DNA of 64,000 nucleotides from Glaucostegus cemiculus (taxonomy: Eukaryota): positions 2,294,001 through 2,358,000 of the forward strand of contig CDPCPM010000370.1 in NCBI GenBank assembly GCA_976551045.1. The letters are read 5' to 3'. Each line of letters starts with the position of its first letter. The stretch's first letter is position 1. The notes beneath the pieces were generated by a model, which ran no database searches, was not told the origin of the DNA, and was given only the letters and a program-made list of their open reading frames with translations. A program made the position numbers and the translations under genes. Positions 24,402 through 64,000 of the stretch are shown here, one piece after another.

Positions 24402-24415
24402 GCGCTCTCTGGCGG
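24402..24415 (-). promoter_or_regulatory. Putative CTCF-binding element 3' of V7 RSS
   Basis: CCGCCAGAGAGCGC, 24 bp from the nonamer. Confidence 0.65.
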
Positions 24416-24439
24416 GTGTTCGTTGTGTCTATCAGGGTG

Positions 24440-24478
24440 CATTTTTGACAAGGTGCGCAATATCTCCGCGGCACTGTG
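24440..24478 (-). other. 23-RSS of V7
   Basis: CACAGTG, 23 bp spacer, TCAAAAATG. Confidence 0.88.
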
Positions 24479-24913
24479 GGATTCATCGCGCAGAGATACG
24501 TCGCAGAATCGGAGACAAGAACTTCGGAGACGTGTAAAAGAACGGTACTGCTGTCTTTGAATAAAAAGGAAGAAAATCGAGGTGGGAATTCGGGAGATCG
24601 GTCTTCTGCCTCAGAGATGAACTTCCGCAGCACATACCTCGGGAATTCTCCGTGATATTGAACGTACCAGAAAAGAGCGTTTGGCAAAGATGCTGACGAG
24701 TAACTGCAATTCAGAGTTGCGGTCTGTCCTTCTACGATCGTTAATTCAGTCGGATGCTGAAACAATGAATCTTTGCCAATCGCTCCTAGAACACAGCACA
24801 AATTTGTGAAACCTCCTTGTACGGACCTAAAGCATTTGACATACAGATCATTTAAGCTAAGACTCACCGTGCAACAAAGCCGTTAGGATGAGGGACGAGC
24901 ACAGGTACAACAT
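24479..24913 (-). CDS. TRAV: TCR V segment V7, divergent singleton, intact (leader 24913-24868, V exon 24785-24479)
   Basis: Leader MLYLCSSLILTALLH|G, 82-bp GT-AG intron, motifs TLNCSY, FWYVQ and DSATYLCAMNP. Confidence 0.9.
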
Positions 24914-25769
24914 GGCGTCTGCTGTGGACAAAAACGGGATCAGTGGAATGAGTTTAATGAGTTCACACTGCGCTAATGACTCCACAGACTAAACTCATAT
25001 TAATGGCGGTCTTCTCTCATTGGCGGACTCAGAGAATTTACCCTTGCACGGGATGGGTGGGTCTCCCTGAGATGATGTCATCTTGGCAGAAATTAGAGTA
25101 CATTCTTCATTTTGACGCTGTAGCGGTTTCGTCCTCTCCCTCCCCCTCTCTCTCTCCCCTCCCTCCCTCTCTCGTTCTTTCTCAGTCTTTCAAAACCTTT
25201 CCGTTTCTCTTTCCCTCTCTTACTTTTTACAGTTTGGTTCATCATCTGTTTATCTGCCTGAGACCTTTTTTGTGTTCGATATCCCATGGTTCAATCTCCA
25301 AAATCTCATTTCTAACTACTCTTAATCAGGGTTTACAGCAGTATGCATGTTTCCTTACCTCCGAACTTCTGCTTCTCTCTCAGGCTCCCTCTCTCTCACC
25401 GTTTTCAGCAGTGCTTTTTCTGTTCCCTAATTACCTAATCTGTACCTCTCTCTCACGCACATCTCCCTTCTCTTCCCCCTCTCTCTCTGCCTCATCAGCA
25501 CACTCTCACTCAATCACTCACTAACCATCTCTTACCACCTCTGTGCTATTTTCTTGCTATCTGTCTCTCGTTTACCCTCCTCTCTGTCATTTTTCTCGCC
25601 TAGTATCTCCAGGTTGCCAATGTAATGAAGGGTAGGGAGGGAAAATTTTCATGCTAGTCTTTATCACTGTATGTTAAGTTGGAAATGTGAGGAAATCTTA
25701 TTGCAATTCAACGGGGCCTTGCTGCAGCTGTCCGTTTTCTTTTCTTTCATCTGAGAGAAGGTGAAGGAT

Positions 25770-26105
25770 CTTGAAAACCCAGACGACCAGGTTCAACTTC
25801 TTCCCCACTGCTCTCAGATTTTTGTAAACCAATCACCCCCTTGACATCCCGATTCCCGGTGATGTTGTCACTCCTCGGCTTTTAGTTTTATATCTCTCCA
25901 TTTTCCGTTATTCTTACTTCAGCATTTTCTTTTTACACTACTACAGATTTCATTACTATCTTTGCACCAGTCTGCTGTTTTGCACAGGTGGCTGTATCTT
26001 TTTTGTTTATTTATCATCGCGATGTTTACATTGTGAACTTCACAGGAGCAAGCAATATTACTGCACCCTGACAGATATAGCAATCAACTGATCGGAATCT
26101 AAATG
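25770..26105 (+). mobile_element. Degenerate Rex1/Babar-like LINE 3' end
   Basis: ttcttccccactgctctcaga (FFPTA.R-like) followed by a LINE-type 3' UTR. The family assignment is from memory only. Confidence 0.45.
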
Positions 26106-26139
26106 CAGTTTCGCCCACCCGATCTGAGAAAATTTATCC

Positions 26140-27110
26140 CTCAGAAGAAGTGCACCAGAGGATCAGACCAAGAACGGTGAAATTCGTCTCTGATGAGAAA
26201 ATGCGTAGACTGAGGGTGCATTCTTTATAGTTTAGAAGGGTGCGGGGAGTTATCACGGAAATCTTTAGAAGAAATTGTAGACTTGACAGAGTAAATACAG
26301 GATGTGATTGTATCACTTGACTGAGGAGTCTGAGACCGGGGGATATATTAAGAATGAATGGTAGACTATGAAATGTTGAGATGAAGGGGCATTAGCTTGG
26401 TCAGAAGATGCTGAATCATTAGATCTTGCAGGTCTGCAGGTAACTGATCCAAAATTGAGGTTAGTAGATTTCATGCCATCGGATGAACCGAGGGATAGGA
26501 TTATAGTTTGGGAAAATGAGTTGAGGTCGGATGTGAGCCACGGTTTGGATTATTGCTTGCTCGGACATGAATGGCCACGCAGCCGGCTCCAGCTCCAACG
26601 TCGTGTGATCATTTCTCCCTTAAATTTTGCCTGGGATATTGAAATAAATAAAATCGGAGGATCCGGGCAAAACTGAGGGAAGAGTTGCTGAAACATTTCA
26701 AAGTTCACAAATTATGTGCCTTTGGTGAAGTGCTTGTTTAAGAGAAACGAATGGGAAGGTTTATCTGATTTTCCTTGGAGTTAAAAAGGAAATACGGAAA
26801 CGACTCATCTGAGTTTGAAGCATCAAACCTGAGGAGACTTGGCAAGGACAATGCCGAAAAGATGTTTCTCTTTTCGAATTTAGGAGTGGTAAGAACAGGG
26901 GTGGTAACAAAAGTTTCAGAATAATGAGTCCTGGTTAAAATAGGGAATGCAAATGACTAAATTCGGAACTGATAGCTGACGCTTGCAACGCAGAAATGAG
27001 TCTTTGAAAATATTGAATAGATGCATTTTTTTAACTATAGGAGCGTAACTTGTCCTGGCATGGCGCAAAATCGAGATGAGAGCATAACAAACGCTATATT
27101 GTTGATTTCA
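26140..27110 (+). mobile_element. Degenerate CR1 fragments
   Basis: Decayed remnants of the motifs found in the younger CR1 copies. Confidence 0.45.
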
Positions 27111-27337
27111 GAATTAGGTTCCAGTGACCATATTCTGGGATCCTGGACAGATGTCTGGTCGCTTTACACAAACGCCTTCGATAGAATTTCAAGTCCAGTG
27201 AGCGTTAACACTATATATCTGCTTCTCACTTAAACCAAGTATCATAAATTGATCAAGAACGTTGCAATTGATATTGCAGTGAAATACACTGATATATTCA
27301 GAATTCGGCAATTCCTCCGCGTTAACATCATTGAAGG

Positions 27338-27351
27338 CCGCCAGAGGGAGC
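27338..27351 (+). promoter_or_regulatory. Putative intergenic CTCF element
   Basis: (GG)CCGCCAGAGGGAGC. Confidence 0.65.
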
Positions 27352-28950
27352 TCGTGCGTCGTGTTTGCGATTAACACACCGGCATGCGATATCTAATCCA
27401 GATATTACAATGGCATCCAGCCTTTTCAACAGAAGCCATTTCGATTTTATATATATCACGCAGATGTCGATAATGTCGTGCATCTGGAAATATATACCAG
27501 TTGGGAGATAGAAATTTCCAACATGTGGACACAACGGTTTCAGCAGGATCAGAACTGGAATCAGATTAATTAGTGGAAAGTAAAAGGGGAATTGATGAAA
27601 CCATTAACACACTGCTGGCAGTGAACATCTAGAAGTCAGCGGCTGAAGTAGAAATGGTGGCAGACGACAACTAAAAAGATTTGAACACATCAAAATCCGC
27701 AAACGACTCGAACCACGAAATTGGATGTGGATTTAACTTAAAAATCGTAAAGCCAATTTAAAAAAGCTGCTGATGATGCAAAACTGAAGTTGAATTTATG
27801 TTGTAGGAAATGCTTGGAAGATTAGCCAATATCTACGGAAGAATAAACCGTCCATGTTCGACTGTGATGTCCCGAATGGCAATATTGCATGTGGTAAGTG
27901 TCTTCATTGCGACATCTCGATTCAAGGAACTAGAATACCTCTCAGAAACTGTGCAAAATTGTGCCTGGTACGAATCGTCAATGCATACGCAATCTTCTGT
28001 GCGCTGACTATCATCAATGAGGAACCTGAGTTGGTTCAGCACCAGGAAATTTCTCAATTAGGACAATGGATTGATATCAGAAGCAATGCAAACTCAAGTG
28101 GAACTGAAATTATATTGGACTGACAAACTGCAGAGCTGCAGCTTACTATTATCACAGCAGATCAACATACATGAGCGACGACTCAAAATTTCCATTCACC
28201 CAACAAGAAGTTAAAACAGGCTGGAAATGGACAACACCACTATTTGTCGGCCAATGAGCATAACAGTGCAGCAAAACATTGTCAGACAACTGGTAAACGG
28301 TTACTTTAAAATATCACGGTGTTCCTGTCTGTTACAATCCAGACCACCCAGTAGACCCTCGAATATTTTGTCGTTAACCTGAGCATTCTTGGATGAATCA
28401 CTGAGATTTGCATGGGTCTCCTGAAGTATTGAAAGTGAATACTGAGCTTCTGCTGCAGCTTAGCGAATTACAAATGTCAGAGAAGGCTTTTTAGCGCAAC
28501 GTTCTGATGCGGGACTCCGACAGTTCAACTTACCTCGTCCAGTTCCTCGCTATTGCTTCAAATTCTTGCCATAATATGGGTTCCCAGTGTAATTTATTCC
28601 TTGCGTGCCATTTTTGGACACGCATGCATTTATCAAACACGTTCACAAACGTTTGTCAATTTCAAACTTTTATTTAATGAACAGGGTGCGATGAATTATA
28701 TAAGTGCCATCAACTTCGCAGCTGACAAGGTTAAGGCAGAAGCAACACGCGGTTCTCCATCCTCCACTCGATTTGGCTTCTGGGATTCATTCGTTTTATT
28801 CACGTCAATATTGGTGTGTTTAAACCTATCGAAAGTTGCCAATCCTCAATATGCAGCTTTAGTTCAGGAGCGCAAGGTATAACCAGTAGAGAGCTGTCCT
28901 TTATCAGACACTGAGGCCAGCCAGATCCAATTAAGTACCCCCTGTCCTAA

Positions 28951-29035
28951 TACACACACACAGACACACACACACCAGTACCACCACCACCACCACCACA
29001 GACACACCGAACATAATCGCAGGCACACACACACA
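28951..29035. repeat. (CA)n/(CAC)n microsatellite
   Basis: Direct inspection. Confidence 0.85.
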
Positions 29036-30103
29036 TCTCCACAATGCCAGATTGCCACATTAAACCGCTGAGAAGGTAGAATCACATCCATTTCATCCGG
29101 CGCTCTTATGTCACATATCGGAGAACTACCAAACAGTGATTCCACTGGATGCATTGGAAACTAAATGATTGAAGATATGATTGGGCGAACAAACCCTGAT
29201 TGGAAATCTCCTGCTGACTGTGTCGCTCATAAGCCAAATCATTGCAGAAGCCCAATGTGACGCGCCATCGTAACTGGAAGTGAAACGTAATTTTACGTTC
29301 ATCTCTGACAGTTTAAAACTACCACATCACCGCAGATACGCTGGCAGCACCCGTTCGTGGAACGCACATTGTGGCAGCTCCCTTGACTGATGTGATCACT
29401 AGCCTCACAGGGTTTCCTCTTACAGCTGTTACCGAGTTAATAACACATAAAATATATCTGAATCTTTTTTTCGCTGTGTATAGCGAAAAGATCTACTCGT
29501 TTTGTTAAAAAGGAATACGAGTGTGCTCTGTGGTCTTATTCTTGCGTAAGTGTCAAGACTCAGCCTCACAGAGCCCATCAGAGGTGTTTTGTAATATGTG
29601 ATCTGCAGCGATACGATCATAATCAATTTCTATACCACTGCAGTCAGCTCCAACAGAAATCTGCTACCTTCTGTATTCAAAGCATAGGGACCTAATTTAC
29701 TAACTCAATTCGTATTTCATCGAGTGAATATCATATTGGGAGTGCTGTGGCTGTCTGACGTATTATCGCCTGGTGACGTAGACAGCGGCAGAAATAGAGG
29801 CACCCGGCCCCAAAATAATTAGCTTCAATGAGTCAAATTTAACTGGACAACGGATCGTTGGTGGACAGTGGAATAGCCAATGGTGTGCTCTTCAGAATTA
29901 CTACTGCAATATTCTGCTGGTAAGTACACAGAATTGTACATTGAACTTGCAGGGATGGGGGAGAATGTTTGCCAGACACTTGCTGGCAAGATGCAGTACA
30001 TTGGATATACCAAAATGACAGGGAAATAATGAAATTTTCACGGAGCCCAAACGGATTTCGGATCGCGAGCACTTTAGATGTACTTCAGGTTTCTCGCGTA
30101 GCA

Positions 30104-30117
30104 GCGCCCTCTGCAGA
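30104..30117 (-). promoter_or_regulatory. Putative CTCF-binding element 3' of V8 RSS
   Basis: TCTGCAGAGGGCGC(TG), 24 bp from the nonamer. Confidence 0.7.
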
Positions 30118-30141
30118 CTGCTTGCGGGAAACATCCGGAAG

Positions 30142-30179
30142 AGCTTTTGTTCGGGCTCTCCATTTCTTTCCACAGTGTG
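30142..30179 (-). other. RSS of V8 (22-bp spacer)
   Basis: CACACTG, 22 bp spacer, ACAAAAGCT. Confidence 0.82.
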
Positions 30180-30614
30180 GGCTTCATGGCGCAGTAATAT
30201 ACGTCAGAGTCCGAGATCAGTACCCTGGATATAGTTAAAGGAAATATCCGACTTTCCTTTTGTAAAACAGCATCAAACCTGCCCGAAAAATGTGCAGACA
30301 GATCGCCCGACCCAGTGCTGAGTCTTCCCAGTATGTATCTCGGCGATTCCCCGGGATGCTGGATATACCAGAAAAGAGTTTCACCAGCGTATTCTGTGGA
30401 GTAGCTGCAGTTAAGTGTACCGATCTGCCCTTCTTCGACCGTCAGTGCAGGCGGAATCTGGGAGACCGACTCTTGGTCACAGGCTCCTGTAACAAAACAT
30501 ACAACGTAAGAGCAGTCTGGGAGCGCATCTAACTCTAGGGCTTGACACAGACCATTTAAGTCACTCACCTGGCTGCACGAGTGTTATAATCAAGAAGGAG
30601 CAAAACGGGAGCAT
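30180..30614 (-). CDS. TRAV: TCR V segment V8, intact (leader 30614-30569, V exon 30486-30180)
   Basis: Leader MLPFCSFLIITLVQP|G, motifs TLNCSY, FWYIQ and DSDVYYCAMKP in an open frame. Confidence 0.9.
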
Positions 30615-31038
30615 AATTCCTGATTTGGAAAAGGCGCTGGAAGAAATGAGCGTTGTCATTCTGATTTCGTCGTGTGTAATCTGCCAGAAGAAACGCAGAT
30701 GAGGGAAGTCATCACATTCTGAGTGCAACGGACTGATTCCCCAGACCAAGATTGGCTACTTCTTGCCAGGAGGTGCATATTGGGCACCAATCAGATCGTA
30801 TCATTGTTTGGTAACTTCCTTTGCTCATCTCTCTCTCTCTCTTTCTCTTTCATTCACTCTCTGTTTCTGATTCTAATATTTTCTATCTATCTTTCAAACT
30901 ATCTATATTCTTCTGTCGTTCGATTTATCACACTCCAGCACTCTAGATGTTTCTTGCTGGTTGTTTTGGGACTTCTCCCTTTTCTACTCTATCGTATTCT
31001 CTTTTTCTCTCTGTTTATCCGCTTCAGTTGCTCTCTCC

Positions 31039-31225
31039 NNNNNNNNNNNNNNNNNNNNNNNNNNNNNNNNNNNNNNNNNNNNNNNNNNNNNNNNNNNNNN
31101 NNNNNNNNNNNNNNNNNNNNNNNNNNNNNNNNNNNNNNNNNNNNNNNNNNNNNNNNNNNNNNNNNNNNNNNNNNNNNNNNNNNNNNNNNNNNNNNNNNNN
31201 NNNNNNNNNNNNNNNNNNNNNNNNN
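31039..31225. other. Assembly gap
   Basis: Run of N. Confidence 0.99.
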
Positions 31226-33383
31226 TCTCTATTTCTAATCCTCCCTGGGTTGGGCTTTACCAGTCTGAACGACTTTCGGGAGCACGAGAAATTCCTGCCT
31301 CCTTTGACCGCCACACGTAACATTGATCTCTTGGCATGCAATGGATTAAAGTGAAATGATACACCATTGTGCAGCTGAGGCCAATTAAACCTGCTACAAA
31401 CAGGCTAACATCCTGTCCATCATTATAGACTAAATATCTGAATCAAGGGTCATATTTCCAGGCTTTGTGTGGTCGGTTGCCCGGGTCAATATGGATTAGC
31501 TTTTTCAAAGATAAATGGTTTCTGTGCTCCGTCACGGATATAAATTAGAAAAGATAGCCAAGTCTGATGTATCCAGACAGGACGAGGTAGGTAAAGGAGG
31601 CAATAGATACTGTGTTATCGACATTTTCATCATGAAAGCTGCTTGCATTATTGTGGTGAGCTTGGCAGTACATGAGGTTGATCTCTTGGTGAAATAGCTT
31701 CCCATTGCTGCAACAGGTAATCACTCATTGATCTGAATATTAAGAACTGAATTCTATGAGCATATACAGTTCTGACAGTGTCTGTCAGGCTCATTGTTGA
31801 GAATACGTTTCCCTTGATACGGAAAACACAACTGAGGTGACACAGAATCAAATGAGGGATGAAGGGATGACGTTAAAAGTTTGAATTCTCAACTGGGGAG
31901 CTGCAGATATTAAGACAATATATTTTCCGACGGAAATACATCGATATTCAATGGGCCCGAACAATGTGAAGCAAAGGCGAGGACTACATGAACCGAAATA
32001 TGATTGAATGACAGTGAACGCTACCGGTGCAGTGCACCTGGCTGCGGTGAACAAAGCAGCACTGCGTTTATTGGATGAATTTCAGAACAAGGGACTGCAG
32101 ATCCGTTTGGACAAAGTGCTCGTGCCCTCATAATGCCTCACAAGCAAACCAATAAGGAGACAGGCCGAATATGACAGCGCTGCTCTACACTCGTCACACT
32201 GCTCAACGATACACAGTGTCTGCGGCAACCAGTTCATTACGGACCCTCCAGCTGTGTGCAAACAAGTTTGCTGCGCCTACTAATTGATTTATTGTTGGGG
32301 CAGCTCTTTCAAAAGATGAATTCCGAAGTCCAACATTCCGCCGGCTATTCGTATCCCAGAGCGACAACATTCGTCTCAGCATGAAGTTCGTGCATATTTG
32401 AAGCACGTTACGGCTCATAGAATCTTGTCTCATAAAGTCAGATTCAGGAAACCCGCGGCAATTATATGTAGCTGCTCGGCAACAGGAATGTTCTCATCCT
32501 TAAACCAAGCAGTATCAGGGCAGTACTTTCATGATCGTGTTTTATTGCCATCGTCAAATGGACACTTATACTAACATTACACTCAGCACATTTACCCTCC
32601 ACTCGTTTCGATCGTCTTTATCTCAATCTGCCAGTAAATTGTACATTACGAACTATTGGCCAGTTATCCCACAAACACACAAAGCTTTGCGATGCAGGAG
32701 GAACTGAAGCAACTGGCGTAAATTCAGTCGACAGAGTGACAAATACCACACCCAGGAGCGTCTGAGTGCAGGATTGAACCTTTGTCACCCGAGTTGCAAG
32801 GAAATACTTATAGCAACTGTTCCCCAATTAACAAAATGGTCTTATCGAGATATCTGCCAAATTGAGGAAACGGGCACTGCATTTCTCGCCTCACATGCAT
32901 ATTAGCATTTAACACCCAACGCCCCCCCCCCCCAACCAATGCTTGAACAGTTGTTCACTAACGGCCTGTTCTGGACGACAGGATCAGGAAGGGACATCTG
33001 TAAATAACAAAGCTGTCATTTATTTGAAGCTTGTAATGTGCTACAGCTGTGACAGAAGAATCCTGTGTACATCATATGGGATGCTGGGTGTTGCATTGCA
33101 AGAATGATGCAATTGAATAGTTGTCCAGCAACAAAAAGAAACGGTCGTCAGAATGAACCCTGCTGATAATTGCCTAAAATTGTTTCAGATGTTGGTAGGC
33201 GTTGAGCGACAGTGTCAGTGCATATGGGCGCAATCGACGTTGTGGTGCCACTGGGGCAAATTTTTCAGAGGAAGAAGTTTGTAAAGGGTTACTGAAACAT
33301 GTGATTAGCATCCTTATCTTGTCACATTCTGTTCACAATGGTGAGGGCGTCACCTGGTGACCGTTGGTTGTAATTGCTGGTTG

Positions 33384-33422
33384 GGTTTTTGTTCGGATGT
33401 TCAGCTATTCTGTCGCAGTGTG
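33384..33422 (-). other. 23-RSS of V9
   Basis: CACACTG, 23 bp spacer, ACAAAAACC. Confidence 0.92.
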
Positions 33423-33860
33423 GGGTTCATGGCACAGAGATATAGGGCAGAGTCGGATACAAAGGCACCGGAGATGGTTAAAGGAACGGCCTTATTTGTT
33501 TTCTGATAATCAGCCGAAAATCTCTCTGTAAAATGTGGTGATCGGTCTCCAGACCCGCTGCTAAAATTCCTCAAGAGATACTTCGGCTCTTCTCCCGCAT
33601 GCTGGATGTACCAGAAGGCAAAGTTACCGTCGTATGCTGCAGGGTAACTGCAGTTCAATGTTACGGCTTCTTCTTCTTCAACCGTCATCTCAGGCGGATA
33701 CTGAGACATTAAATCATCGCCAACGGTTCCTGCAACGGAGCACAGAATCTATGAGCAGTCTGCAAGTGGATAGAAGCTACAGTACGCATTGGATCATGAT
33801 AAATAAACACTCACCAGGGAGGGCCAGGATTATTATCATCAGTGACCACGGATTCAACAT
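33423..33860 (-). CDS. TRAV: TCR V segment V9, family B, intact (leader 33860-33815, V exon 33729-33423)
   Basis: Leader MLNPWSLMIIILALP|G, motifs LNCSYP, FWYIQ and DSALYLCAMNP. Confidence 0.9.
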
Positions 33861-36528
33861 GCCCTCTAGTTCGAAAGCAAACGGGTCAGAAGGAATGTTG
33901 GCAACCTTGATGCTTCTGATCACATATGCGTGAGGAAATGTAGATCATGGGTCGGAATTTATTTTGTGCAGATTAAGGGGCGTGTCCACAGTGCATGTTA
34001 GGCTAGTCCCTCACACCTGACAATATTTGAGCACATCATTTGTGCGCTGACTTCGTCTTTCTCTCTGTCTTTCTCAAGCTCCCATTTTCTCTCCCTCAAT
34101 CCTTATGATTCTCTCTCTCCCCGCCCTATCTCTCTCTCCCGCTCGCTGTTTCTCTCCTTCTCCATCTCTCTCTTCCTTCTCTCTGTCCTTCTCCCTCTCT
34201 TTCGCTCTCGATCTCTGTCTCACCCCACACCCTCTGTCCCTCTCTTTCTAACTTTCTCCCACACAAACACGAATGATCTCCATGACTGCCTCGAAGTCGG
34301 TATTCTTCTCGGACTCCGGCTATTTAATGATTCTCAAATGAAAATTCATCTCCACCTCTTCCTCGTGACTTACAACAGTGCCTTTGTCTTTCATTTCTTA
34401 TGCATTTTTCTCCCTCTCTAGTTGATTTGAATCGATTTCCTCAAGTAGTATGTACTATTAATTTCGTGCCATTCAATTGATTGAAGCGAAATTGCACCGC
34501 TGATGCCAATTAAACCACCACGAAAATTTGATAGCCATCATTATAGGTTGGAGCTTTGGATCAAAGGGTAGATTCACACCGTTTGTGTGGCACTTCACCC
34601 ATGTCAAAGTAGATTTTTTCTTTGCAAAAATGAGTTTTTCAAGTGATCCAGCAGTTGCAAATGGAACGGGCAGCAAGGTCTCGATACAACTGGATAGAAG
34701 GATATTGGGTTGGGAAGCCATATATATTGAGTGCCTTCATTTTCGTGATTAATCGCGGTTGGGTTTACATTGGGGGAGTTCGGAGGCTTATCGGCTGATT
34801 TCTCGGTGTGATGCATTGCCATGACAGCTGCAGTTAAACGTACAAGTGATTCTGAGCTCATAAATCAGAAGAATGAAAATTGGTCCATTTGAAAATACAA
34901 GTTCCTGACAGTGTCTGTCAGCCAGATGTTGAGAAACCTTTTCCCTCGTTGGGATAAACGAAACCATGGAGTTGGCAGGAAAGGTGTTACTGAATCAAGT
35001 AAGCGACGAAGGGGAATTTCTTCGACACTGTTTCCAATTTCCAACCCGCTGGAGCTGAAGACATTCATACGATATATTCCCCGACTGGACACAGAGGCAG
35101 TGGAAGGAACTCTATGGACCCGCTACAAGTGGAGTTAAAGGGAGGATCATATTAGCCGAAGTCTCATTCACTGAAGGAAAACAATATATGAGCAGAGGCG
35201 GTGTCGTTCGGAATCGAAGGGTCGCTATGTTGATTGGATGAATTGTCGAACAAAGGCGTGTAGATCCGATAGGACGAACAAAGTGCACGTCCCTCATTGG
35301 AAATCAACAGTCGAATGCCTCGTAAATAACTCAATGAGGAGAGAGGCCGGACACGACAAAAGTCCTGTTCATTCATGCACTAATTCTGCGGCCAGCATTC
35401 GCGACGAGCCCGCCAGCTCGGTGCAAACATGTTAGCGGCTCCTAATTACTGTGTGCTCACCACGGCATCGCTTTAACCTGAACAATTGTAATGTCCCAGA
35501 GAACAGTCATTCGTGTCCCTCAGCAGCGGCGTTATTTAATGCTTTCACTTTTTTGTAGTTTTCAGCCGGTTCAGACTTACAGAGGCTTGTTTCAGAGAGT
35601 AAGGTTGACGGAGCCTCCACAGCAATTAATTGCGGTTCTTCAGTCACAGCACCTTTACAATACATAAAACCATCGTTACCAGAACTCTTCAGACGAACAT
35701 GCTTTAGTGTCATAGCCAAAGGCACAGTTAAACAAACCTTACACCAATCCTATTTTTACCCTCGACTCGTTTATATTAATAACCTCAGCTTTGGGTACTC
35801 AACTACACACCACAAGGAACTACCATTGGCCACTTTTCACACAGTTCGTTAGGATCTGGAAGAACTGCATAGAACTACGAGGAAATGTCTGCAGTTGCAT
35901 AGCGAATGTATAAACTGCGGATGCAAATATCACCGGAGGTTAGGAATGGACCCAGGTCATTAAACCTGCGAGAAAACACCTCCACCAACTCTTCTCCAAT
36001 TAACAAAATATTCCTGTTCAGAAAATCTTATGAGAGATAAAGGAAGAACTACATTTTTTCACGTCATCGGATAATTAGGATTTTAATTTCCACCAATTTA
36101 ATCTGCAGTTGCATAACGACTTGTTCCCGGCGATCAGATCAGGAGGTGACCTGGGTAAAAATATCTGGCACACTTTGAAATGCATATCGGTCTGCAGGGA
36201 AGATGGGATAGCCCTTTACTATACGCAAGGGGTGTTTTACGAGAAGCAATATGCAACATAAAACTTATTTTAAAAACGCCAGAAAGAATAACCTTAAAGA
36301 TGATTGTATAACATTGCGGTTCATGTTGTTGGTAGGCGTTGAGGGAAGGAACTATTGAATTAGGGTCATTCGCGTTCTGGATAAAATTGGTTGCATTGCG
36401 GCAGTCATTACTGGAGAAGAAGTGTGCAATGGATTTGCCGGGAGATGCGATCAGCATCTTCCTCTCACTTTCCATTCATACTGGTTAGGGAGCCATCTGG
36501 AGACCGATTGCTCGAACTGCAGGAGCGA

Positions 36529-40375: not shown

Positions 40376-40377
<2 letters not shown>

Positions 40378-48870: not shown

Positions 48871-48951
<81 letters not shown>

Positions 48952-53065: not shown

Positions 53066-54873
53066 GGTGTTTGCTTTGTCAGCAGACGGGATCACGTCTT
53101 TGAATCTACCGTGTTTGTGATTCGGATCCGAGAAGTGTGAAGATATAGAGATCAGGTGCAAGCTTGTCTTTTGGAGAGACGGGGGGCGTTTCCCTGGTGC
53201 ATGATTGGCTGGATTCTCACCACTGTCGCGATTTGAGCACGTGCATTCTTCCCATAAGAACGCCAATCAGATCTCTCTCTCACTCTCTATATCGATCTCT
53301 ATCTCCACCTCCCTCGAAACTGGTACGTTGACTCTCATTCTCGTTCTCCCTCTCTCTTTGTCTCTCTTTAATTGCCTAGAAGTTTAACTGCCTGTTTCAT
53401 TCTCCTGGCAAGCACTGTTTCTCAATGTACACTACTCGTCATCACTCATTCGCTTTTAACATGACTATCTGAATCTTTTACCGCACGAGACTATTTCTCC
53501 CTTTCTCCAACTCAGTCGCCCATTGCCCCGGTGTCTCCCTCTTTCGTATTCCAGTGTTGGGGCATCGCCATTTCCCTTTCATTAAGGTTCTGACCTGAGT
53601 TTTTGCTTTCTCCTTTCTCGCCGTTTCTCCGACGTGTCGCATAAAAGTCACGACTTGCAAAACTCATATCATTTCTCTTTCATCTTTGCTTGATGGCTTC
53701 GAAGTGTTCTTTGCACGCCATGATGCCCAGTAACTCATCGAGAATCAGTAGGTTTGTGAATCCACTGCATTCTGGCATCACGATTAGGCACTGTGACAGA
53801 GTCAACTGCAAGTTCCAAAAACAACCCAGGTCAACCGAGTCATACTGCTGCAATACGATTCTCTGCCTTTAAATTTCTGTATTGGTGCAGCCTCGGTATG
53901 CTCCTGACCTGTCTCAATGATACATTTTCTGGCAGACCAATGAAGTGTTCCTGATCAGTCAAAGCAGTCCTCCAAAACACAGACACGTCAAGATCAGGAC
54001 AGTCGTCTGACGACTCTGATCTAATGCCACAGCCACAGTCGTCGATGTCTGCACTGAAGCAGGTCAATTGGCCCACTGGATTCGGCTTGAACAGCAAGCA
54101 CACATTTGGACAAATCGAAAGCGAATCCCCCCTCTTATCTCCCTTCTGTGCCCTCACATTGCCAGTATTATTCGCCGACAGATTCACTGCAGAGTTTTAC
54201 GCAGCTTGCATTGATGAATTATGCCACTTCCCGTAAGTCTGTCAGGTTGAAGAGAGGAAACGGAGCTACAGTGAAAACACATGGTATCACAAGGAAAACG
54301 TGAATACAGGACAAGATCGATCCTGGGATTTGGGATCATTCAATTTTAGGAAAACAAAAGTTGTAGTAAAATCTGAGGAATAAAGGGAACAGTTCAGTCT
54401 TCCCTTGCAGACATGCGTCTGCATGACGGCTTGGCTCATCCATCTCTCTCATAATTAACCTGAACAACAAGGCAAAATATCGTGAAAATGGCGTGCTGTG
54501 AAACTTTAATCGGCTATGTGTAGGATGGATATAATCAAGGAGAGCACTGTACAGATCGCAAAAACTATTGGACGTACAGAAGCATGGAGGTTATTGGTAA
54601 TCCAACAAAAAACGATGAAGAGGAAGACACCTCTTGATATTTCAATAAACTGCCATTGTTCAGGTTGGCAGGAGTTGGGCGGGAGAGTTACAAAGGAAGG
54701 GGCATTTCAAATATGGAGGAGACCGGAAGGAACGGACCTTCTTTCTTTGAACAGAGAATGATGAAAACGCATTTGCTGATAAAAGAAACTCCGAAAGATT
54801 CAGTCTCTCGTCGCAACTCATGACAAGGGCAAGTGCGACCTCTGGTGAGCAATCGCTGAAAATGCTGGGGATC

Positions 54874-54912
54874 GGTTTTTGTTCGGGTCTGCTGCTTTTC
54901 TATCGCAGTGTG
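54874..54912 (-). other. 23-RSS of V17
   Basis: CACACTG, 23 bp spacer, ACAAAAACC. Confidence 0.92.
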
Positions 54913-55359
54913 GGCTCCATGCCACAAAGATAGACGGCAGAGTCAGAGATAAGGACACCAGTGATAGTGAATGAAACCGATAGGGATTCTTTCCGATAAA
55001 CAGCTGAAAACCTTTCAGAAAAATCTGGTGACCGTTGTCCTTGTCCGCTGGGGAAACTCCTCAATAGAAATATCGGCCCCTCCCCGGGATAGTGGATATA
55101 CCAGAAAACAGTGTCTGCAGCTAACGTTGCGGGGTAACTACAGTTCAATATTACTGTTCGTCCTTCTTCCGCCTTCAGTTCAGGAGGATCCTGGGACGGT
55201 GACTTGTCGCCGCAGGCTCCTACAAAAAATACACACAGAGAAATTCATAATGAGCAGTCTGGATGTGAATCGAAGCCACCCATCACACTGGAAGCAGTTA
55301 AATGGAGACTTACCGTGGAACATCAGCATTATTATCAGTATGGACCACCGAGAGGTCAT
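54913..55359 (-). CDS. TRAV: TCR V segment V17, family B, intact, paralog of V16 (leader 55359-55314, V exon 55219-54913)
   Basis: Leader MTSRWSILIIMLMFH|G, open frame ending YLCGMEP. Confidence 0.88.
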
Positions 55360-57159
55360 GGTGTCCGCTCTGTAAGCAGAAGGGAGCACGTCGAGTGACT
55401 CTATCTTGTTTATGCTTCGGATCCGATAAGCGTGAGGAAATAGAGATCAGGGGCAAGCTTCTTTTTTGAAGAACTAAGGGACGTTTCCCTGGTACTTGAT
55501 TGGCTGTAGTCTCACCACTGTCACGATTTTAGCACGTGCCTTCTTCTCATAATTAGGCCAATCAGATCTCTAGACCCCCCCCCCCACCTCTCTCACTCTC
55601 TTTCTCTCTTTATCGCCACCTCCCTCTGAACTGGTACAATTCCTTTCATTCTCCCTCTCTCTCTGTCTCACTTTGATTGCCTGGATCAACTGTTTCGTTC
55701 TCCTGGTCAACACTGTTTCTCAACGGACACCACGCCTCATCGCTCATTCGCTTTTAACATCACTATCCGAATATTTTGCCACAAAAAACTATTTCTCCCT
55801 TTCTCCATCCCTCTCCCATATATCCCCGGTGTCCCTCTCAGTGTTGTGGCATAGCCAGTTCCATTTCCTTAAGGTTCTGACCTGAGTTTTTGCTTTCCCC
55901 TTTCTCGCAGTTTCTCCGAGGCGCCGCATGATTGTCACGACTTGCAAAACTGAAACCATATCTCTGTCGTCTTTCTCGATGGCTTCATGTAAGTGTTCTG
56001 TCTACGCCATGATCCCCAGCGGCTTATCGAGAATCAGCTGGTTTGTGAATCCGCTGCACTCTTGCAGCACGAGGAAGCACCGACACAGGATCCACTGTCA
56101 ACTTCCATACACTACACCAGATCATCCAGGTCAAATAGCCACAACACGATTCTCTGCCTTTATAGTTCTGCATTTGTGCAAACTCGGTAGGCTCCTGACC
56201 TGTCTCAATGAGACATTTTCGGGCAGTCTTGGAAGCAAAGTAGTGTACTTAATCGGTCAAAGCAGTCTTCCTAAAGGCATACCCGTCAACATCACGACAG
56301 ACGTCTCACGAGTCTGATTTAATGCCGCAGTGACAGGCCCTTCGTCCCTTTGAATTCGTCTAGAATAGCAAGCACTCGTTTGGACAAACCGAACGCGAAT
56401 TCCACCTCTGTCTTCCCTTCTGTGCTCCCACATCCCCCGGATTCATCACCGACAGGGTCACCGACAAAGTTTTGCGCAGCTTATTGACAAATTATGCCAC
56501 TGACCCGTAAGTCTTTCACGTCTGAGAGAGGAACCGGAACACACAGTGGAAAGAAACGGTGTCAGAGGGAAAACCTGCAAATAGGTCAAGATCGATCCTG
56601 GGTCTCTAGTCTGTTAATTTTCGAAGCACATACCTGTTGCAGAGAACCTGTACAATAGAAAGAAAGGTATTTTCAGGTCCAAGACAAAGTTCAATTTATT
56701 CCCTTGGAGACCTGCGATTGCCTGAGGCCTGATGAATCCATCTCCCTCCGTTACTTGCAACAACAGTAACAGAATGAATCGTTAAAAGCACGGTGCACTG
56801 AAACGTTTACTGGCATGTAGGCAGAATGGAAAGCATCAGGAAGAAGCCTCTTCCGATCGCAAGAACAATTGCACGTGTAGAAAAAATGTAGCTCAGCGGC
56901 TACCCAGCTGAAAACGCCAAAGCTGCAGAAGCATGCAGATAATTCAATAAACAGTGGCTCCAAATATTGGTCGGAGTGGGGAGGGAGTGTTATGGAGGAA
57001 GGACCATTTCAAATGTGCAGAACATTTAGGCTCATCCATTGAACATAGAATATTTCAAAACAAATTTGCTGCAAAATGTGAAGAGTTTCTGTCTCTGATA
57101 ACCTCTCTTTTCCGGTAAAATGCACTCCTGGTGAGGGATCGCTGGAACTGTCATGTTGT

Positions 57160-57256
57160 GGTCTGTTGTTGGATCTCTTCTGTGACGCATTGCGAGCCAC
57201 ATGAGAGTGGTTAAAGGAGCCGAACAAGTTTATTTCCGACTGTAAGCAGGAAACCT
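57160..57256 (-). pseudogene. V relic: decayed RSS plus a framework-3 fragment
   Basis: gagagtggttaaaggagccgaacaagtttatttcc...gcaggaaacct aligns by eye to family B FR3. It sits at the V position of a family B repeat unit. Confidence 0.6.
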
Positions 57257-58010
57257 AGTTCAGCAGTGAAGCAGGCCCATCGCCCAAATTGATTCGACTT
57301 GACCTGCAAGCACACACTAATCCTATCCAACTTCTAAACAGTGTGAACCACCATGTTCTGACAGTCACCTACAAAACGATAGGCAGCTTCTGTGCCACAA
57401 ATCCGCAAGTTTTCCGGATTTGGAAAGCGAGCGGGATCACGCAGGAGAAACACACGCGGCAAGAGGGGAAATTTGTAAACAGTTCTGGATCGATCCTGTG
57501 TAGCGGGGTCTGCCAATTGTCGGGTTAAAAATATCTTGAAGAGAAACCTGACGAATAAAGCGATAGGTTCATTAATTATGCGCCAAACTCAACAGGTCGA
57601 ACACGCGGTTGAATTCCCACCCAGCAGTCCTAAGTTTGCTGGACGGCTTGGTGCATCCATCTGCCTTGGTAAATGACACAGCAATAAGCGGATGTATCAT
57701 TGAAATGTCTGATTGCAGAACATTTATCGGCCGCAGGCAGGATGGAAAGAAATCAATGAGAGCACTCTACCAATTACAAGACATTGCAAGGGCAATCAAC
57801 GGTTATCCATAAAGTTGGTAATTCAATAAAATGGCCCTGCAAATATTGATAGGAGTGGGCGGAAGAGTCACGGAGGAAAGTGAATTTGAAGTGCGGAGAA
57901 TATTGGGATGGTTGGGGCTCTTCTCTTTGGAATACGGAATGTTTGAAACAGATTTGTTGAAGATTCCGAGGGGTTGGTAGCGCTCATCTCTTCTGCTTAC
58001 CGGGGCAAGT

Positions 58011-58024
58011 GCGCCCTCTGGTTT
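58011..58024 (-). promoter_or_regulatory. Putative CTCF-binding element 3' of V18 RSS
   Basis: AAACCAGAGGGCGC with upstream CAGT. Confidence 0.65.
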
Positions 58025-58049
58025 GTGAAGGATGAAACTGTTGGGGTTC

Positions 58050-58088
58050 GGTTTTTGTTCGGCTCTGCTGCTTTTATGTCACAGCGTG
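58050..58088 (-). other. 23-RSS of V18
   Basis: CACGCTG, 23 bp spacer, ACAAAAACC. Confidence 0.88.
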
Positions 58089-58526
58089 GGGCTCATGGCA
58101 CAGAGATACACGGCAGAGTCGGAGACAAGAACTCCGGAGATAGTTAAAGGGACCGAACGAGCTTCTTTCCAATAAACAGCAGAAAATCGCTCAGTGAAAT
58201 CTGGTGACCGGTCTCCAGGCAGGCTGCTGAAACTCTTAAGCAGATATCTCGGCTTTTCTCTAGGAGACTGGATGTACCAAAAGACAGCACTAGTACCGAA
58301 TGCTGCCGGGTAACTGCAGTTCAGTGTTACTGTTCGTCCTTCCTCAGTCGTCAGTTCAGGCGGATACTGGGACATTGAATCATCGCCAAAGGCTCCTGCA
58401 AAGAAGCGCATAATTATTGAGCTGTCTATAAGTGAATCCAAGCCACGGTCCACACAGGAGACAGTTGAGCAGACACTCACCGTGGAACATAGACATCACA
58501 ATCAGGATCGACCAGAGTGCGCACAT
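58089..58526 (-). CDS. TRAV: TCR V segment V18, family B, intact (leader 58526-58481, V exon 58395-58089)
   Basis: Leader MCALWSILIVMSMFH|G, motifs FWYIQ and YLCAMSP. Confidence 0.9.
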
Positions 58527-60044
58527 TGTTTCTGCTTTGGAAACAAATGGGGCAAGTCAAATTAATCCCTCGTCTTTATGCCGCGGATCATATATGTGCG
58601 TGGAAATAAAGATCGGGGCAGGCTTCTCTTTTGGAAGATTCAAGGGCGTTTCTCTGATCTTCGATTGGCTGATCTTCGATTGGCCGATCTCTCACAACTG
58701 TTTGAATACAGGCCTATTTCCTGCACGTATGCTGATTGGACTTCTCTTTCTCGCTCTCTCCACGCTACTTCTCGACCCGAATTCCTCCTTCTCATTCTCT
58801 CTCGCTCTCTCTTCCTCTCCCTTTTCTCTCCTTTCTAATGGCTGCCATTTTCTTGTTTTTAAAGGACATCACTCCCACATCTCACTCACTATTAACATTA
58901 CTATTCAAATCCTTTACCAATTGATCATTTTTTCCTGCCTCTCTCTCCCGCTCTCCTTGCCCCGGCATCTTGCCCTTTCGTATTCCAGCTTTATGGCATC
59001 TCCAGCTCCCTTCTTAAAAATCCTAACTCGCACTTTTTCTTCGTCCTCTTTCGCTGATTCTCTGCCAAGTTGAGTTAATATCACGATTTGCAACATTCGA
59101 AGGATATCCCCGTTATCATGGCTTGTTGGCTTCATGTAAATGTAATAATACGCCCTGATTCGCAACAAACAACGTGGAATCAGCCTTTTTTTTCTCTGCC
59201 GCTACGCTCTGACAGCAGACAACACCACTCCGACAGGCTCAACTGACAATTTCAACAATCTTACCTCAGGACATCTCTGTCGTTTTGCTGCAGCATGAAT
59301 CTCTGTGGTTTCTTTTCTTCATTTCAGTGTAGATTCGGTCTCCGAGTGATCTCTCACCACAAACCAGATTCGGGGAGTCTTCCCAGCAACGAAGAGTACC
59401 TCATCGGTCAATGCAAACTTCCAGACCTTAAACCCGTCAAGAAGAGGACAGTTCGTTCACGACCGTACCGGCGATCTGGCCCACAATTGGTCAAATATTT
59501 GTAAATAGATAATAAACCGTAACTACCTGTGAAAACAATCGCCGACACACGGAGAAGGTTGAAAATCGACACGGAGACAGAGCAGGAGGTTGGAATCAAA
59601 CCCGCGTCGCCTGGGACCTCAGGAGGTTGCCCGACCGGTTGTTGTCCAGTTCCGGACAAAAAAAAATTCTTATCGTGAATCCCGCCGAGCAAATGTCGAA
59701 GAGTGATATCAACTTTCCTCTCGAATGTCTATAGTTGCCTGACGGTCCCGTGCATCACTACGCCTCGGGAATTGTCAACAGGAAAAAGAAGGAAAATCGT
59801 GAAAATCTGTCCACGGTAAATCGCAGTGTAAGCAGGGTTGAAGGAATCACGGAGGACCCTGTAGCGATCACAAAATTATTGCAGGTGCAATTACATGCAC
59901 TTCAACTGTTATCCAGCTGCAGAGACAAAAGATGTAAAAATTAATAAAACGATGCTGTAAATATTGTTTGGTCTGGTGGACAAGGGGGATTACTGACGGA
60001 TGACGAGTTTCTGTCTCTGAGCACCTTTGTTTACTGGGGTACGT

Positions 60045-60058
60045 GCGCCATCTAGTGC
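60045..60058 (-). promoter_or_regulatory. Putative CTCF-binding element 3' of V19 RSS
   Basis: GCACTAGATGGCGC with upstream AGCAGT. Confidence 0.7.
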
Positions 60059-60121
60059 CAGCTCACTGAAACTGCTGTGTTGGGTTTTTGTTCGGATCTG
60101 TTGTCTCTCTGCCACAGTGCG

Positions 60122-60557
60122 GGCCTCATAGCACAGAGATAGACGGCAGAGTCGAACACATTGACCCCGGAGATAAATAAAGGCACCGTCCGATTTTCTT
60201 TCTGAGAAACAGCAGAAAATCTGGCTGTGAAACCTGGTGACCGGTTCAAGGATCCAGTGGCATCTGTCTGCACTGTGGATCTGGGCGCTTCACTGGGATA
60301 CTGGACGTACCAGAAGAAGGTGTCAGCAACGAATTCTGCAGGATAACTGCAGCTAAGTTTTACCGTTTGTCCTTCTTCAATCGACAGTTCAGGGGGATAC
60401 TAGGTCATCGAGTTATCGCTACATGTTCCTACAACAAAGCAAAGAAACTAAGCAGCCTGGAAGTGAATCGCAGGTCGAGTCCGCACAGGAATCAGTTATA
60501 TAGACACTCACCGGGGTACACCGACATTGTAATCATTAAGGACCAAAGAAAAGTCAT
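60122..60557 (-). pseudogene. TRAV: TCR V pseudogene V19 (leader 60557-60512, V exon 60428-60122)
   Basis: TAG in place of the FR1 Gln codon (60402-60400). Heptamer CGCACTG breaks the essential CAC. Nonamer ACAAAAACC is intact at 60091-60083. Confidence 0.88.
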
Positions 60558-61852
60558 TGTGTCCAGGTCAGGTATAGCTAGGGAAGAGACATGTGATTCC
60601 ACCGTGTTTATGCCCCGGATCCGATATCAGTGCGGAAGCAGATGAGGAGCAGGTTTTTCTTTTACTGGAGAGGAAGGGGCGTTTCCTTGTGCGTCTGATG
60701 GGCTGGTCGCTCAGAAGTGATGCAAAACCAGCACATGTCTTCTTGCTTTGCGTGTGCAGGAAGTCTCTCACCACCCCCCCCCCCCCCACCTCTGATTTTC
60801 TCGAAGTCTAGCTGTTCCTCTCGTTCGCCTACAATTTTGCTCGTTTCCAGAGTATACTTCGCCTCCCTGCGGTATGACTTACTTTGGACAGACGAGGAGG
60901 CATTTCCCTTGGGCATAGTTGCTCCTGGAATGTGTGAGCACTTCGCCCCGTATGCCTTTAATTTTGCATGACATTGGTGCTTCATATTATCGATTCAAAC
61001 GAAAAGACACAAATCAGGTTTATTCACACACCCAGTCAGTTAAAGCTTTACTCCAGCCGTTTTTCCGTGTACAGAGCACTATCCTTTACGCGTGGGCGGT
61101 GAAGTAACAACGTTTACACTGTGCTCACGAAGTCCACGTTTCTTTGCTCTTCCTGAGTCGGATTGGACAGATGCTGTCATCGCTCCCTTGGATTGAGCTC
61201 TCAGACTTCGCACTCAGTGGCACCGTCCTCGCTCTCTTTGCGGACTGCTGCCGGGTTTCGGCACGGCTGACCTCGAAGCAGAGTTCTCTCTCACCACAAA
61301 GGGGCGTTGTAGCTCACCAACAGGCAGTGCTACCTCTGCCCTGGCTTGCTGTTCGGTGTAGCTTTGCTGCAGCTATCAAAAATTTCTTTTCTCTTGGCCC
61401 ATTGGATGGCAAGTTGGGAGGGCCACTTTTAGTCTCTTCAAAGAATAAAACATTTGGGGAATCATTGAAACGTGCCATCCAACTAAGGTACAGGAAGGAA
61501 GCCAAGGGTCCATTCCATTTGTTTCTCGATTGTTCCTCTTTCTCTGGAACGACATTGATGAGGAATATTAAATGAGCTGATGAATGGGTTGTCATGCGGT
61601 TAATAAATTCTCTTCTTTCACTGAATCAAGAACCTGTTGGCTCAGACTAAATGTCTGGCTCAACGAGTTGCGATGTGGATTCGGATCTTCTGTGACTAAT
61701 ATCAGCTCAGCCAACATTCCCATGATCCTCAAGCAACTGTGCCCTAACACCCCACTCCCACCCCGTGACTCTATTACGGGAATTGTTTGGCCAGAGCATA
61801 ACGAGTTAGCTGGTCTCTCACAAATGACACAAACTGAACTGGTGCATTCTTC

Positions 61853-61993
61853 NNNNNNNNNNNNNNNNNNNNNNNNNNNNNNNNNNNNNNNNNNNNNNNN
61901 NNNNNNNNNNNNNNNNNNNNNNNNNNNNNNNNNNNNNNNNNNNNNNNNNNNNNNNNNNNNNNNNNNNNNNNNNNNNNNNNNNNNNNNNNNNNN
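61853..61993. other. Assembly gap
   Basis: Run of N. Confidence 0.99.
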
Positions 61994-62830
61994 TTATCCT
62001 CCTATGGGCTAGAACCCAAAGTACATTGCACGGCACCATGTTGCAGAACACATGAGTGCTAAATAATTCAACACTGGTTCCTATTTCACGGCCTACCTCT
62101 CTTTCCCTTTGCTCTGATATATGTCTCTTCCACACGCCAGGCTTGCACGCGGAAAACGAGGAAATACGGCAGCCACAAATCGCCTAAAGTTGCGATGGAA
62201 CCCCTGTCACGATGAAACAACCATTTCGGCCGTTTTTCTATGAACAACACATTCTTGCAGTTCAACGTGCGGAAGAATGGGGAAAGGAGCTTCAGTCTTC
62301 GCCAAATTAAAACATCGAAGACTGAATTCAATATCTCTCTCGAAGATCTGTGGATACCTGACCGCCCGATGCATCACCCGGACTCAGGAATCAGCATTAT
62401 CAACAAGGCAAAAGATCGTTCAAAAGCATGTCCCAGTCTGACTCGATTATTGGCCTGCGGACGGGATGGAATTAATTAGAGAGTACAGTCGGTTGATCAT
62501 AACACATACTGCTCGAGTGAAACTTGAAGCTCGACAGTTATCCAGTTAAAAATGACGAAAATGAACAACCTGTTTATCATCCGATACTATCGTACTTCCA
62601 ATGTTGATAGGAGTAAAGTGGAAAAGTAATCTAGAAGGGGGCATCTCAAGTGCGGAGAAAATTGGGAGAGTTTGAGGCTTTTCTCCGAGCAGCTGGGAAC
62701 GTTTGCAACGCATTTCTTGAAAGCTCCCACGAGTTTGTTTATTCTGATGGCCTCTTCTTACACGGTAAAATGCGTGCTCTGGTGGCTGCTCGCTGCAACT
62801 AGCCTGGTTGTTTATTTTGTTCGAAGTCTG

Positions 62831-63277
62831 GGCGTCATGACACAGAGGTCTACGATAGAGTCGGAAACAAGGATCCAGACGACAGTTAAATGAACCTTCT
62901 TATTTGCTCTGTGATAATCGGCAAAAATCATGTCAGCCAAATCTGATGACTGTTCTTGGAGCCTAGTGTTTAATATCTTCAGTAGATCCTATCTATCTGC
63001 GTTCATCTCCAGGAGACTTGACGCACCAGAAGGCAGTGTTCCAATTGTACGCTGCAGTTTAACTGCAGTTCTGTCTGACGGTTTGTTCTTCATCAACCGT
63101 TAGCTCAAGCGCATATTGGATCAGTGAAACATCGCCAGAGGCTCCAGCAACAAAGCATAGGAATTGTCAGCAGTCTGGAAGTGAATGGACGCCACAGTCA
63201 CCACACAAGCGAACTAACCCCCTAGACTCACCACGTAACACTGGAATTATCGTCAGTAAGGACAACAGACAGGCCAT
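62831..63277 (-). pseudogene. TRAV: TCR V pseudogene V20 (leader 63277-63232, V exon 63144-62831)
   Basis: Acceptor is TG instead of AG, TAA follows NCS, and there is a 7-bp insertion frameshift. The heptamer and most of the spacer are deleted. Confidence 0.87.
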
Positions 63278-64000
63278 GGTGTCTGGTTTGGAAACACATG
63301 GTTAATAGCGGAATGATCCCACCGTGTTGATGCGTCAGATCGGATTGTGTGAGGAAACGTAGACCAGGGTCAAAGCTTCTGTTGGGAAGATTTGGGGCTT
63401 TTTCCTAGTGCCTGATTGTAAGGGCACGCACAACTGTCGTAATTTCAGTACATGCCTGGGGTCTCCCACAGCTCATCAAATTCGACCAAATCCCATCTTC
63501 ACACTTCGCTTTAAGTGCTCTCCCACCCCCCCACCCCCACCCAACATCTCTCGGTGTCTCTGTCTCTCTCTTTCCCATTATCTCCCACTTACACAATTTC
63601 TCTCTTCTTGCCCAGGTATCGTTGGCTTTCCTATTCCAGGTGCTCATTTGAAAATTGACCATATTGAAAACTTTGACAATTGTCTTACAATTCCTAATAT
63701 TCCTTCCACAATAAGATAAAGAGTTCTGTTAATAACAGGACGAAATACTTGCGCAGAAACATGCAACTCCACAGTGATCCAACTAAGAATGCCTAAGAGG
63801 AGTGATTCTGCTCGTCGTACCATAATACGGTTCTTCAAAGTTGCGTCAGAATAGGGTGAGAAAGTTGCTGAGAAAACGCCATCTCAGATATGGAGAGCAT
63901 AGGGGGAATTAGGTTCTCCTTGGAACAGGGACTGTTTGCAACGCATTTGCGAGGAACTGAGGTGGTTGTGATCACTTCTGTATACCGCGGTAAGTGCGCC

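Follow-up and report, generated by a model that had tools for sequence, protein, structure and literature searches.

The TCR alpha/delta locus and its V segments

The 64,000 nucleotides of Glaucostegus cemiculus DNA analysed here, termed the window, are positions C370:2294001-2358000 of contig CDPCPM010000370.1 (C370) and hold 20 variable (V) segments, V1-V20, every one on the minus strand. Behind the recombination signal sequence (RSS) of most segments from V7 to V20 lies a word of the type bound by CTCF, and this CTCF-type site is the subject of the analysis. The surrounding contig is an elasmobranch alpha/delta locus of the T-cell receptor (TCR), with many V carrying 23-type RSSs, a long array of joining (J) segments carrying 12-type RSSs, one C1-set constant (C) exon and nearby immunoglobulin heavy-chain (IgH) clusters. 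The sequence-only reading of the window as part of a cartilaginous-fish TCR alpha locus is thus borne out by the J array, the C1 exon and the V set, in the wider form of TCR alpha/delta.

Five 10-kb samples taken between 60 and 150 kb of C370 contain 43 J with a 12-RSS, all on the minus strand, and four additional minus-strand J lie at 220-230 kb; a loose J-RSS pattern search was dominated by chance matches. The single C1-set exon is 3' of the J array and also on the minus strand. We take it to be alpha from its position and motifs; a search returned no named relative of it, and the matches of a PDB search with V were generic V domains only. The J lie approximately 2.2 Mb from the window V, which are in deletional orientation relative to them; therefore, the sites of the window V point toward J, as mouse VH sites do. 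Between 0.37 and 1.86 Mb of C370, the TCR V have 14 intact IgH-type V and no fewer than eight C1-set exons scattered among them, in both orientations. Five of these exons read as IgM-type, a type marked here by the shark secretory tail. Linkage of such TCR alpha/delta and IgH elements in elasmobranchs is described in PMC12227049.

Approximately 1.1 Mb of the 2.75-Mb V region was surveyed, aimed at V located by four protein searches, and the resulting V set is a lower bound. The survey found 380 V-like ends. Of these, 222 are intact, defined as having no stop in the last 88 codons, a Cys-Trp-Cys pattern, a 23-type RSS and 300 bp of flank (V19 of the window passes this filter despite an earlier stop). 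The other 158 were kept out of this set because they were broken or germline-joined or had too little flank; the anchoring of broken V is looser than that of intact V.

A CTCF-type site behind one V clade

Scores were computed with a CTCF matrix modelled on JASPAR MA0139.1. This agrees with the consensus printed in PMC6746451, as do the cores of the sites except at position 4. An upstream motif of the kind contacted by CTCF zinc fingers 9-11 (ZF9-11) was scored as the letters matched of the 10-letter consensus printed in PMC12885311. The gap is counted from the RSS nonamer to the first base of the core. The array and its sites, all on the minus strand, are:

24440..63130 (end approximate), minus: tandem array V7-V20 of TCR alpha/delta V, 23-type RSS, one clade, same sense as J
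24402..24415, minus: CTCF-type core behind V7, gap 24, score 10.9; RSS 24478-24440
30104..30117, minus: CTCF-type core behind V8, gap 24, score 15.8; RSS 30179-30142, 22-bp spacer
33347..33360, minus: CTCF-type core behind V9, gap 23, score 16.6; upstream motif 7/10 at 33370-33379
36490..36503, minus: CTCF-type core behind V10, gap 25, score 11.5; RSS 36567-36529
36513..36522, minus: ZF9-11-type upstream motif of the V10 site, 9/10 letters, 6 bp past the nonamer
39431..39444, minus: CTCF-type core behind V11, gap 23, score 10.1; upstream motif 7/10
42586..42599, minus: decayed core behind V12, score -2.4
45491..45504, minus: CTCF-type core behind broken V13 (nonamer decayed), gap 23, score 15.9
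48159..48172, minus: CTCF-type core behind V14, gap 25, score 9.5
50496..50509, minus: CTCF-type core behind broken V15, gap 27, score 8.0
52549..52562, minus: CTCF-type core behind V16, gap 25, score 12.2
54835..54848, minus: CTCF-type core behind V17, gap 25, score 12.2; upstream motif 7/10
58011..58024, minus: CTCF-type core behind V18, gap 25, score 7.7 (p 1.1e-4); upstream motif 7/10
60045..60058, minus: CTCF-type core behind V19, gap 24, score 15.3; upstream motif 8/10
62772..62785, minus: weak core behind broken V20, score 6.0

The sequence-only reading had listed thirteen of these 14-mers and a decayed V12 copy, and all are present at the coordinates above. A matrix scan of V7-V20 places 11 of the 14 at p<1e-4 and 13 at p<2.5e-4, the odd one being V12; in this segment, a close sibling of V10, the exon is open and the nonamer shows one change. 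The proposed near-fixed distance from the nonamer stands for V7-V14 and V16-V19 (23-25 bp). It lengthens to 27 bp for V15. The RSS of V20 is broken and its spacer shortened, such that a gap of 20 can be given to a best-fit nonamer only. The broken genes of the array are V13, V15, V19 and V20; the V19 exon has a stop codon near its 5' end and a changed heptamer. Across the whole window there are 23 minus-strand and 10 plus-strand matches at p<1e-4, as compared to 6.4 expected per strand.

The neighbouring V1-V6 (4891..20760, minus strand) belong to a different V family without the site and act as an internal control: none of the six reaches p<2e-4 for CTCF. A look-alike word at gap 8-11 in V1-V6 was not counted; it is one base short, scores -0.4 to 5.9 and is absent in dispersed kin. 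Separately, plus-strand, reverse-facing CTCF-like words (scores 9.9-13.4) are found approximately 450-500 bp downstream of V1, V2, V3 and V5, at window positions 4420-4438, 8035-8053, 10003-10021 and 15629-15647.

In the survey as a whole, 64 of the 81 intact members of one V clade carry the site at p<1e-4, as compared to 0 of the 141 other intact V. None of the 25 IgH-type V that were sampled has it at gap 12-32, nor does any other TCR alpha/delta family. Among broken V, it is found behind 34/91 clade members and 0/43 others. The clade has support of 100/96 in a tree of a 70-sequence subset, and a median within-clade amino-acid identity of 47%; V7-V20, previously described as divergent V lineages, are branches of this single clade. 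The sites exceed what shuffled flanks produce, a comparison that had been proposed: over 200 dinucleotide shuffles, the 81 clade flanks yield 1.2 matches on average and 4 at most, against the 64 observed. The reverse strand of the same flanks has 7/81 matches at p<1e-4. At p<1e-5 there are 43 forward matches and none in reverse, the forward sense being that of V transcription. In 60 of the 64, the nonamer and core are 24±1 bp (23-25 bp) apart, and when the combined RSS and site pattern was searched genome-wide, 40 of 40 matches fell on this contig, with none for the reversed control. At C370:2.91-3.01 Mb, strong sites persist behind decayed clade V whose RSS region has suffered deletions, and the gap there is reduced to ~7 bp.

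The copies are paralogues, so recurrence alone proves little. The more informative measure is the rate of change of each column on a tree built from the V exons only of 72 V. In a matrix-free alignment, nine core columns require 1-7 changes; the nonamer mean is 2.6, and flanking columns mostly require 10-25. When the alignment is anchored on the site, columns of higher CTCF information content have fewer changes (rho -0.70, p 8e-4), and the core variants sit at positions that CTCF tolerates. Among 872 pairs below 45% protein identity, nucleotide identity is 0.81 in the core and 0.88 in the nonamer, as compared to 0.35 in the gap and 0.31 downstream; the length of the gap nevertheless differs by 0-1 bp in 800 of these pairs. 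The core thus changes about as slowly as the nonamer while the adjoining bases are randomised, and the earlier expectation of conservation beyond the flank is upheld. Contigs of two DNA runs from one sample covered the sites and flanks patchily.

These measurements bear on two further explanations. The first is a neutral passenger, in which a chance GC-rich word in the clade ancestor was copied by duplication or gene conversion. The single origin and the paralogy of all copies would fit such a history. A core conserved like the nonamer beside randomised bases would not, nor would the CpG kept in 61/70 cores or the fit at the same gap in a skate and two sharks; the tree-based column test and the diverged-pair identities rule this candidate out, leaving it a very small share of our confidence. 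The second is that a different factor, such as YY1 or another zinc-finger protein, occupies the conserved block. The YY1 consensus contains ATGGCG, most copies differ from CTCF at position 4, and 16/72 carry a YY1-like T variant. YY1 itself was rejected because it fits these 16 copies only; 54/72 have G at the YY1-variant position, as suits CTCF but not YY1, the profile of changes as a whole tracks CTCF, and the upstream motif occurs at CTCF spacing. Binding by another factor is accordingly improbable.

The upstream motif had been noted behind several of the window V. It begins 5-6 bp from the nonamer and, at offset -19, at least 7/10 letters match in 7/17 V of the window-type array (control 0.8%) and, at -18/-19, in 3/12 V of families 10-12. 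In the distal array it does not extend to any of 41 V. Judged by its sequence, the RSS-associated CTCF-type site at this locus is real, selected and restricted to one clade. Whether it would pause extrusion, act locally or insulate, the motif is very probably a selected CTCF site.

Likely origin and proposed action of the site

The nearest known counterparts of the site are the RSS-associated CTCF sites behind D-proximal VH in mouse and IGHV of clans II/III in human (PMC6746451). In both, the core follows the nonamer on its 3' side at a constant spacing and reads in the direction of V transcription, the length of the gap is conserved and its sequence is not, presence is predicted by the V tree, and recombination removes the site. 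The parallel with mouse VH drawn in the sequence-only reading therefore extends to core, strand, gap and segregation with the V tree. There are also differences. The gap to the first base of the core is 24±1 bp here and ~19-21 bp in mouse, making it about 3-5 bp longer; the published values are 17-19 bp in mouse, to a core written two bases earlier, and 19 or 48 bp in human (PMC6746451). The receptor is TCR alpha/delta rather than IgH, many V are inverted, and the site is absent from the IgH-type V of this fish. The uniform facing of clan II/III sites toward the D-J end is not seen here.

The age of the site was assessed with database proteins that read through the RSS, back-translated, with one record per species. 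Records from Leucoraja erinacea (stop-truncated and partial; score 6.9), Heterodontus francisci (10.0) and Chiloscyllium punctatum (6.6) each fit the site best at gap 24 and fall in the neighbourhoods of three subclades; one further clade-like record fits at gap 25 with a score of 9.0. Taken together, the sequence comparison suggests that the site predates the shark-skate split. Bony-fish read-through tails, a weak test, show no fixed offset: 3/27 scored 8 or above, at gaps 25 (a clade-like record), 37 (Alosa) and 9 (Coilia). Within G. cemiculus, one presumed TRG V and several immunoglobulin light-chain V, mostly germline-joined, have no site. On contig C41, presumed to be TRB from a CAWS motif, a forward match at gap 6-13 is found in 3/23 V and a reverse match in 1/23, with none at gap 24. 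The three CTCF-like words 6-13 bp behind the nonamer are at C41:951418, 987908 and 1003586.

An ancestral jawed-vertebrate mechanism, as had been suggested, is not what this distribution indicates: the site is confined to a single TCR V clade (64/81 versus 0/141), is found in 0/25 IgH-type V, has a gap unlike that of mouse VH and lacks a fixed bony-fish offset. The sequences do not point to common descent with mammalian VH sites; loss in cluster-type IgH is possible. The element likely has a single origin that precedes the divergence of sharks and skates; copying of V segments would have spread it, and its design would match that of mammalian VH clan II/III by convergence. A fixed-distance CTCF-type site in a TCR clade of sharks and a skate suggests that the mammalian IgH design arose at least twice, in different receptors. 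No description of RSS-coupled CTCF sites in cartilaginous-fish TCR loci was found in the open-access literature, judged by titles and the opening lines of abstracts, and PMC12227049 does not mention CTCF.

Nearly everything known about how V at megabase distances come to RAG is from mouse. There, mutating the RSS site of VH81X lowers its use, and repair of the site makes a neighbouring pseudogene the most used VH (PMC7930373; bioRxiv 2020.01.01.891473). The geometry of the deletional V is the same as that of mouse VH, from which we infer a CTCF-bound pause for extrusion anchored at J. By analogy with mouse VH, the reaction would involve: binding of the motif 24±1 bp behind the nonamer by CTCF in thymocytes; pausing, at the bound site, of cohesin loop extrusion coming from the J end; local opening of the RSS, which would be held next to RAG; and a raised use of the adjoining V. 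The chance that the clade site acts in this way appears about even. Skates have cohesin genes and CTCF-oriented topologically associating domains (PMC10115646).

The J/C end has candidate motifs for such an anchor. In ~200 kb of it, 16 strong CTCF motifs are directed toward the V array and 4 the other way. As in mouse Tcra/Tcrd, V-region sites mostly face J-C and convergent sites occur at the J end (PMC5859386, PMC7696796). The contrast previously drawn with that locus also holds, in that many mouse V-region CTCF sites are upstream of promoters and some intergenic, not RSS-adjacent (PMC5859386). Strong V-facing motifs at C370:56537, 158933 and 164954 occupy the intron between J and C and the stretch immediately 5' of the J array, where the TEA site is found in mouse.

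Orientation of the V constrains this proposal. On the contig, 65/211 intact V are inverted relative to J, so one-way scanning cannot explain the locus. Each site flips with its V; 59 face J and 5, behind inverted V, face away. The arrangement in which all functional V are convergent with J is found only within two clade arrays, which have 0 orientation switches in 18 V and 0 in 43 V. The label of a RAG-scanning architecture is accordingly too broad for the whole locus. Scanning may apply to the two all-deletional CTCF arrays, and a locus run purely by RAG scanning is unlikely. The CTCF site would be one of several V-recruitment modules, and the many inverted V must also join by diffusion.

The site is kept in 59/68 deletional and 5/13 inverted clade members (Fisher p 5e-4), a difference driven by the two tandem arrays. 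Several observations weigh against a pause for J-anchored extrusion. The link to orientation is not phylogenetically independent, and in the dispersed region the comparison is 5/7 versus 5/13 (p 0.35). The five inverted members that keep sites facing away from J have scores of 9.0-16.1. The site-less V1-V6 array is also all deletional, with 0 switches in 9 V, and 5 of the 16 V-facing J-end motifs belong to one tandem repeat. Mouse RSS sites are J-proximal, whereas those here are mostly J-distal. Position 4 of the matrix, normally C, is T in 48/72 copies, which may mean weaker binding. Cross-species support is back-translated from one record per species, and two further clade-like records are weak or ambiguous. 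Finally, relic V ends with dead RSSs retain perfect sites in 4/5 copies, and broken V13 and V19 retain strong ones, whereas mouse pseudogenes are typically without the site (PMC6746451). The relic V ends lie between V1-V6; 15 columns are identical in four of the five copies, and the fifth, near 22000, is decayed. The relic sites are:

1177..1195, minus: CTCF-type site of a relic V end (RSS dead), score 21.8
6943-6961, minus: like relic site
12491-12509, minus: like relic site
17954-17972, minus: like relic site

If CTCF binds, it could instead act locally and regardless of orientation, by clearing nucleosomes from the RSS or by anchoring V loops, with synapsis occurring by diffusion as at mouse Tcrb and Igk. 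This is a doubtful but substantial alternative. It would explain why the site follows the strand of its V rather than that of J and why 5/13 inverted members keep it, and it would suit the tight gap, in which the upstream motif starts 5-6 bp from the nonamer, as well as the proportion of intact V that are inverted. In mouse, Trbv1 can join in both orientations although it uses a CTCF site, and Tcrb and Igk rely on CTCF-aided diffusion-based synapsis; as here, their inverted V are unable to join by linear scanning (PMC10772921). At mouse Igk, site orientation is independent of V orientation, whereas here the site follows the V (PMC5859386). Local action would not account for two large clade arrays that are wholly deletional (0 switches in 61 V), as compared to 31 switches in the 51 V of an array with a different motif (described below). 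Nor would it account for the one subclade of five that lost the site, in which 4/5 members are inverted.

A still less probable alternative is that the sites are general architectural or insulator elements, serving compaction, limiting germline transcription or shielding TCR V from IgH clusters, and lie beside the RSS only through the duplicated V unit. Their persistence behind dead relic V and broken V13 and V19 is in line with such a role. Likewise, many strong sites in the surveyed V region are not RSS-linked (72 minus, 39 plus), and IgM-type C exons are interspersed in the locus. A link between the upstream motif and insulator activity has also been reported (PMC12885311). An insulator free of position would, however, have no need of a gap length constant to ±1 bp alongside a randomised gap sequence (identity 0.35), and the site is recorded less often behind broken than behind intact clade members (34/91 versus 64/81, with looser anchoring of the broken V). 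The locus itself offers natural contrasts for a role in extrusion pausing or otherwise: V10 versus V12, inverted versus deletional clade members, and a second clade with another motif.

A second motif and neighbouring features

This second clade comprises 54 V of families 43-45 (C370:2.24-2.85 Mb) without the CTCF site. Behind 48 of the 54 lies a RUNX-type hexamer, in most cases at +65/66 relative to the nonamer. Among 155 six-column windows, none changes more slowly than this hexamer (permutation p 0.001), which is a post-hoc motif in a younger V family. The main array of this clade, at 2.40-2.85 Mb, has 31 orientation switches in 51 V. Several V families show neither the CTCF-type nor the RUNX-type element. 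Families 43-45 also carry E-box-like words at +34 and +44.

These data raise the possibility, put forward tentatively, of a clade-encoded two-module code behind the RSS. In this code, the CTCF module would provide orientation-locked capture by loop extrusion (61 array V with no inversion), and the RUNX module would provide orientation-free capture (51 V with 31 flips). Mouse Igh similarly has two exclusive states downstream of the RSS, CTCF/RAD21 and PAX5/IRF4, and its authors asked whether other loci have two exclusive states (PMC4914699). Unlike those states, the modules here are putative ones read from sequence, and the second is RUNX-like, befitting the T lineage. If correct, the code would have evolved independently as the T-cell analogue of the CTCF and PAX5 states at mouse Igh, combining scanning and diffusion in one locus, and its CTCF module would be older than the shark-skate split.

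Two further arrangements of RSSs occur on the contig. Family 27 V at C370:929976, 1093400, 1111209, 1161711, 1169757, 1214367 and 1233069 have a second RSS-like heptamer-23-nonamer approximately 20 bp behind the first; the strict pattern is present in 3/8 V of families 27/28, and by eye in more. Several family 27 V sit 2-3 kb from NAR-like V. In addition, V from two families form tail-to-tail pairs whose RSSs are back to back, tens of bases apart, at C370:710764/710905, 1157674/1157822, 1387756/1387899, 2098251/2098395, 2105556/2105700 and 2111930/2112071.

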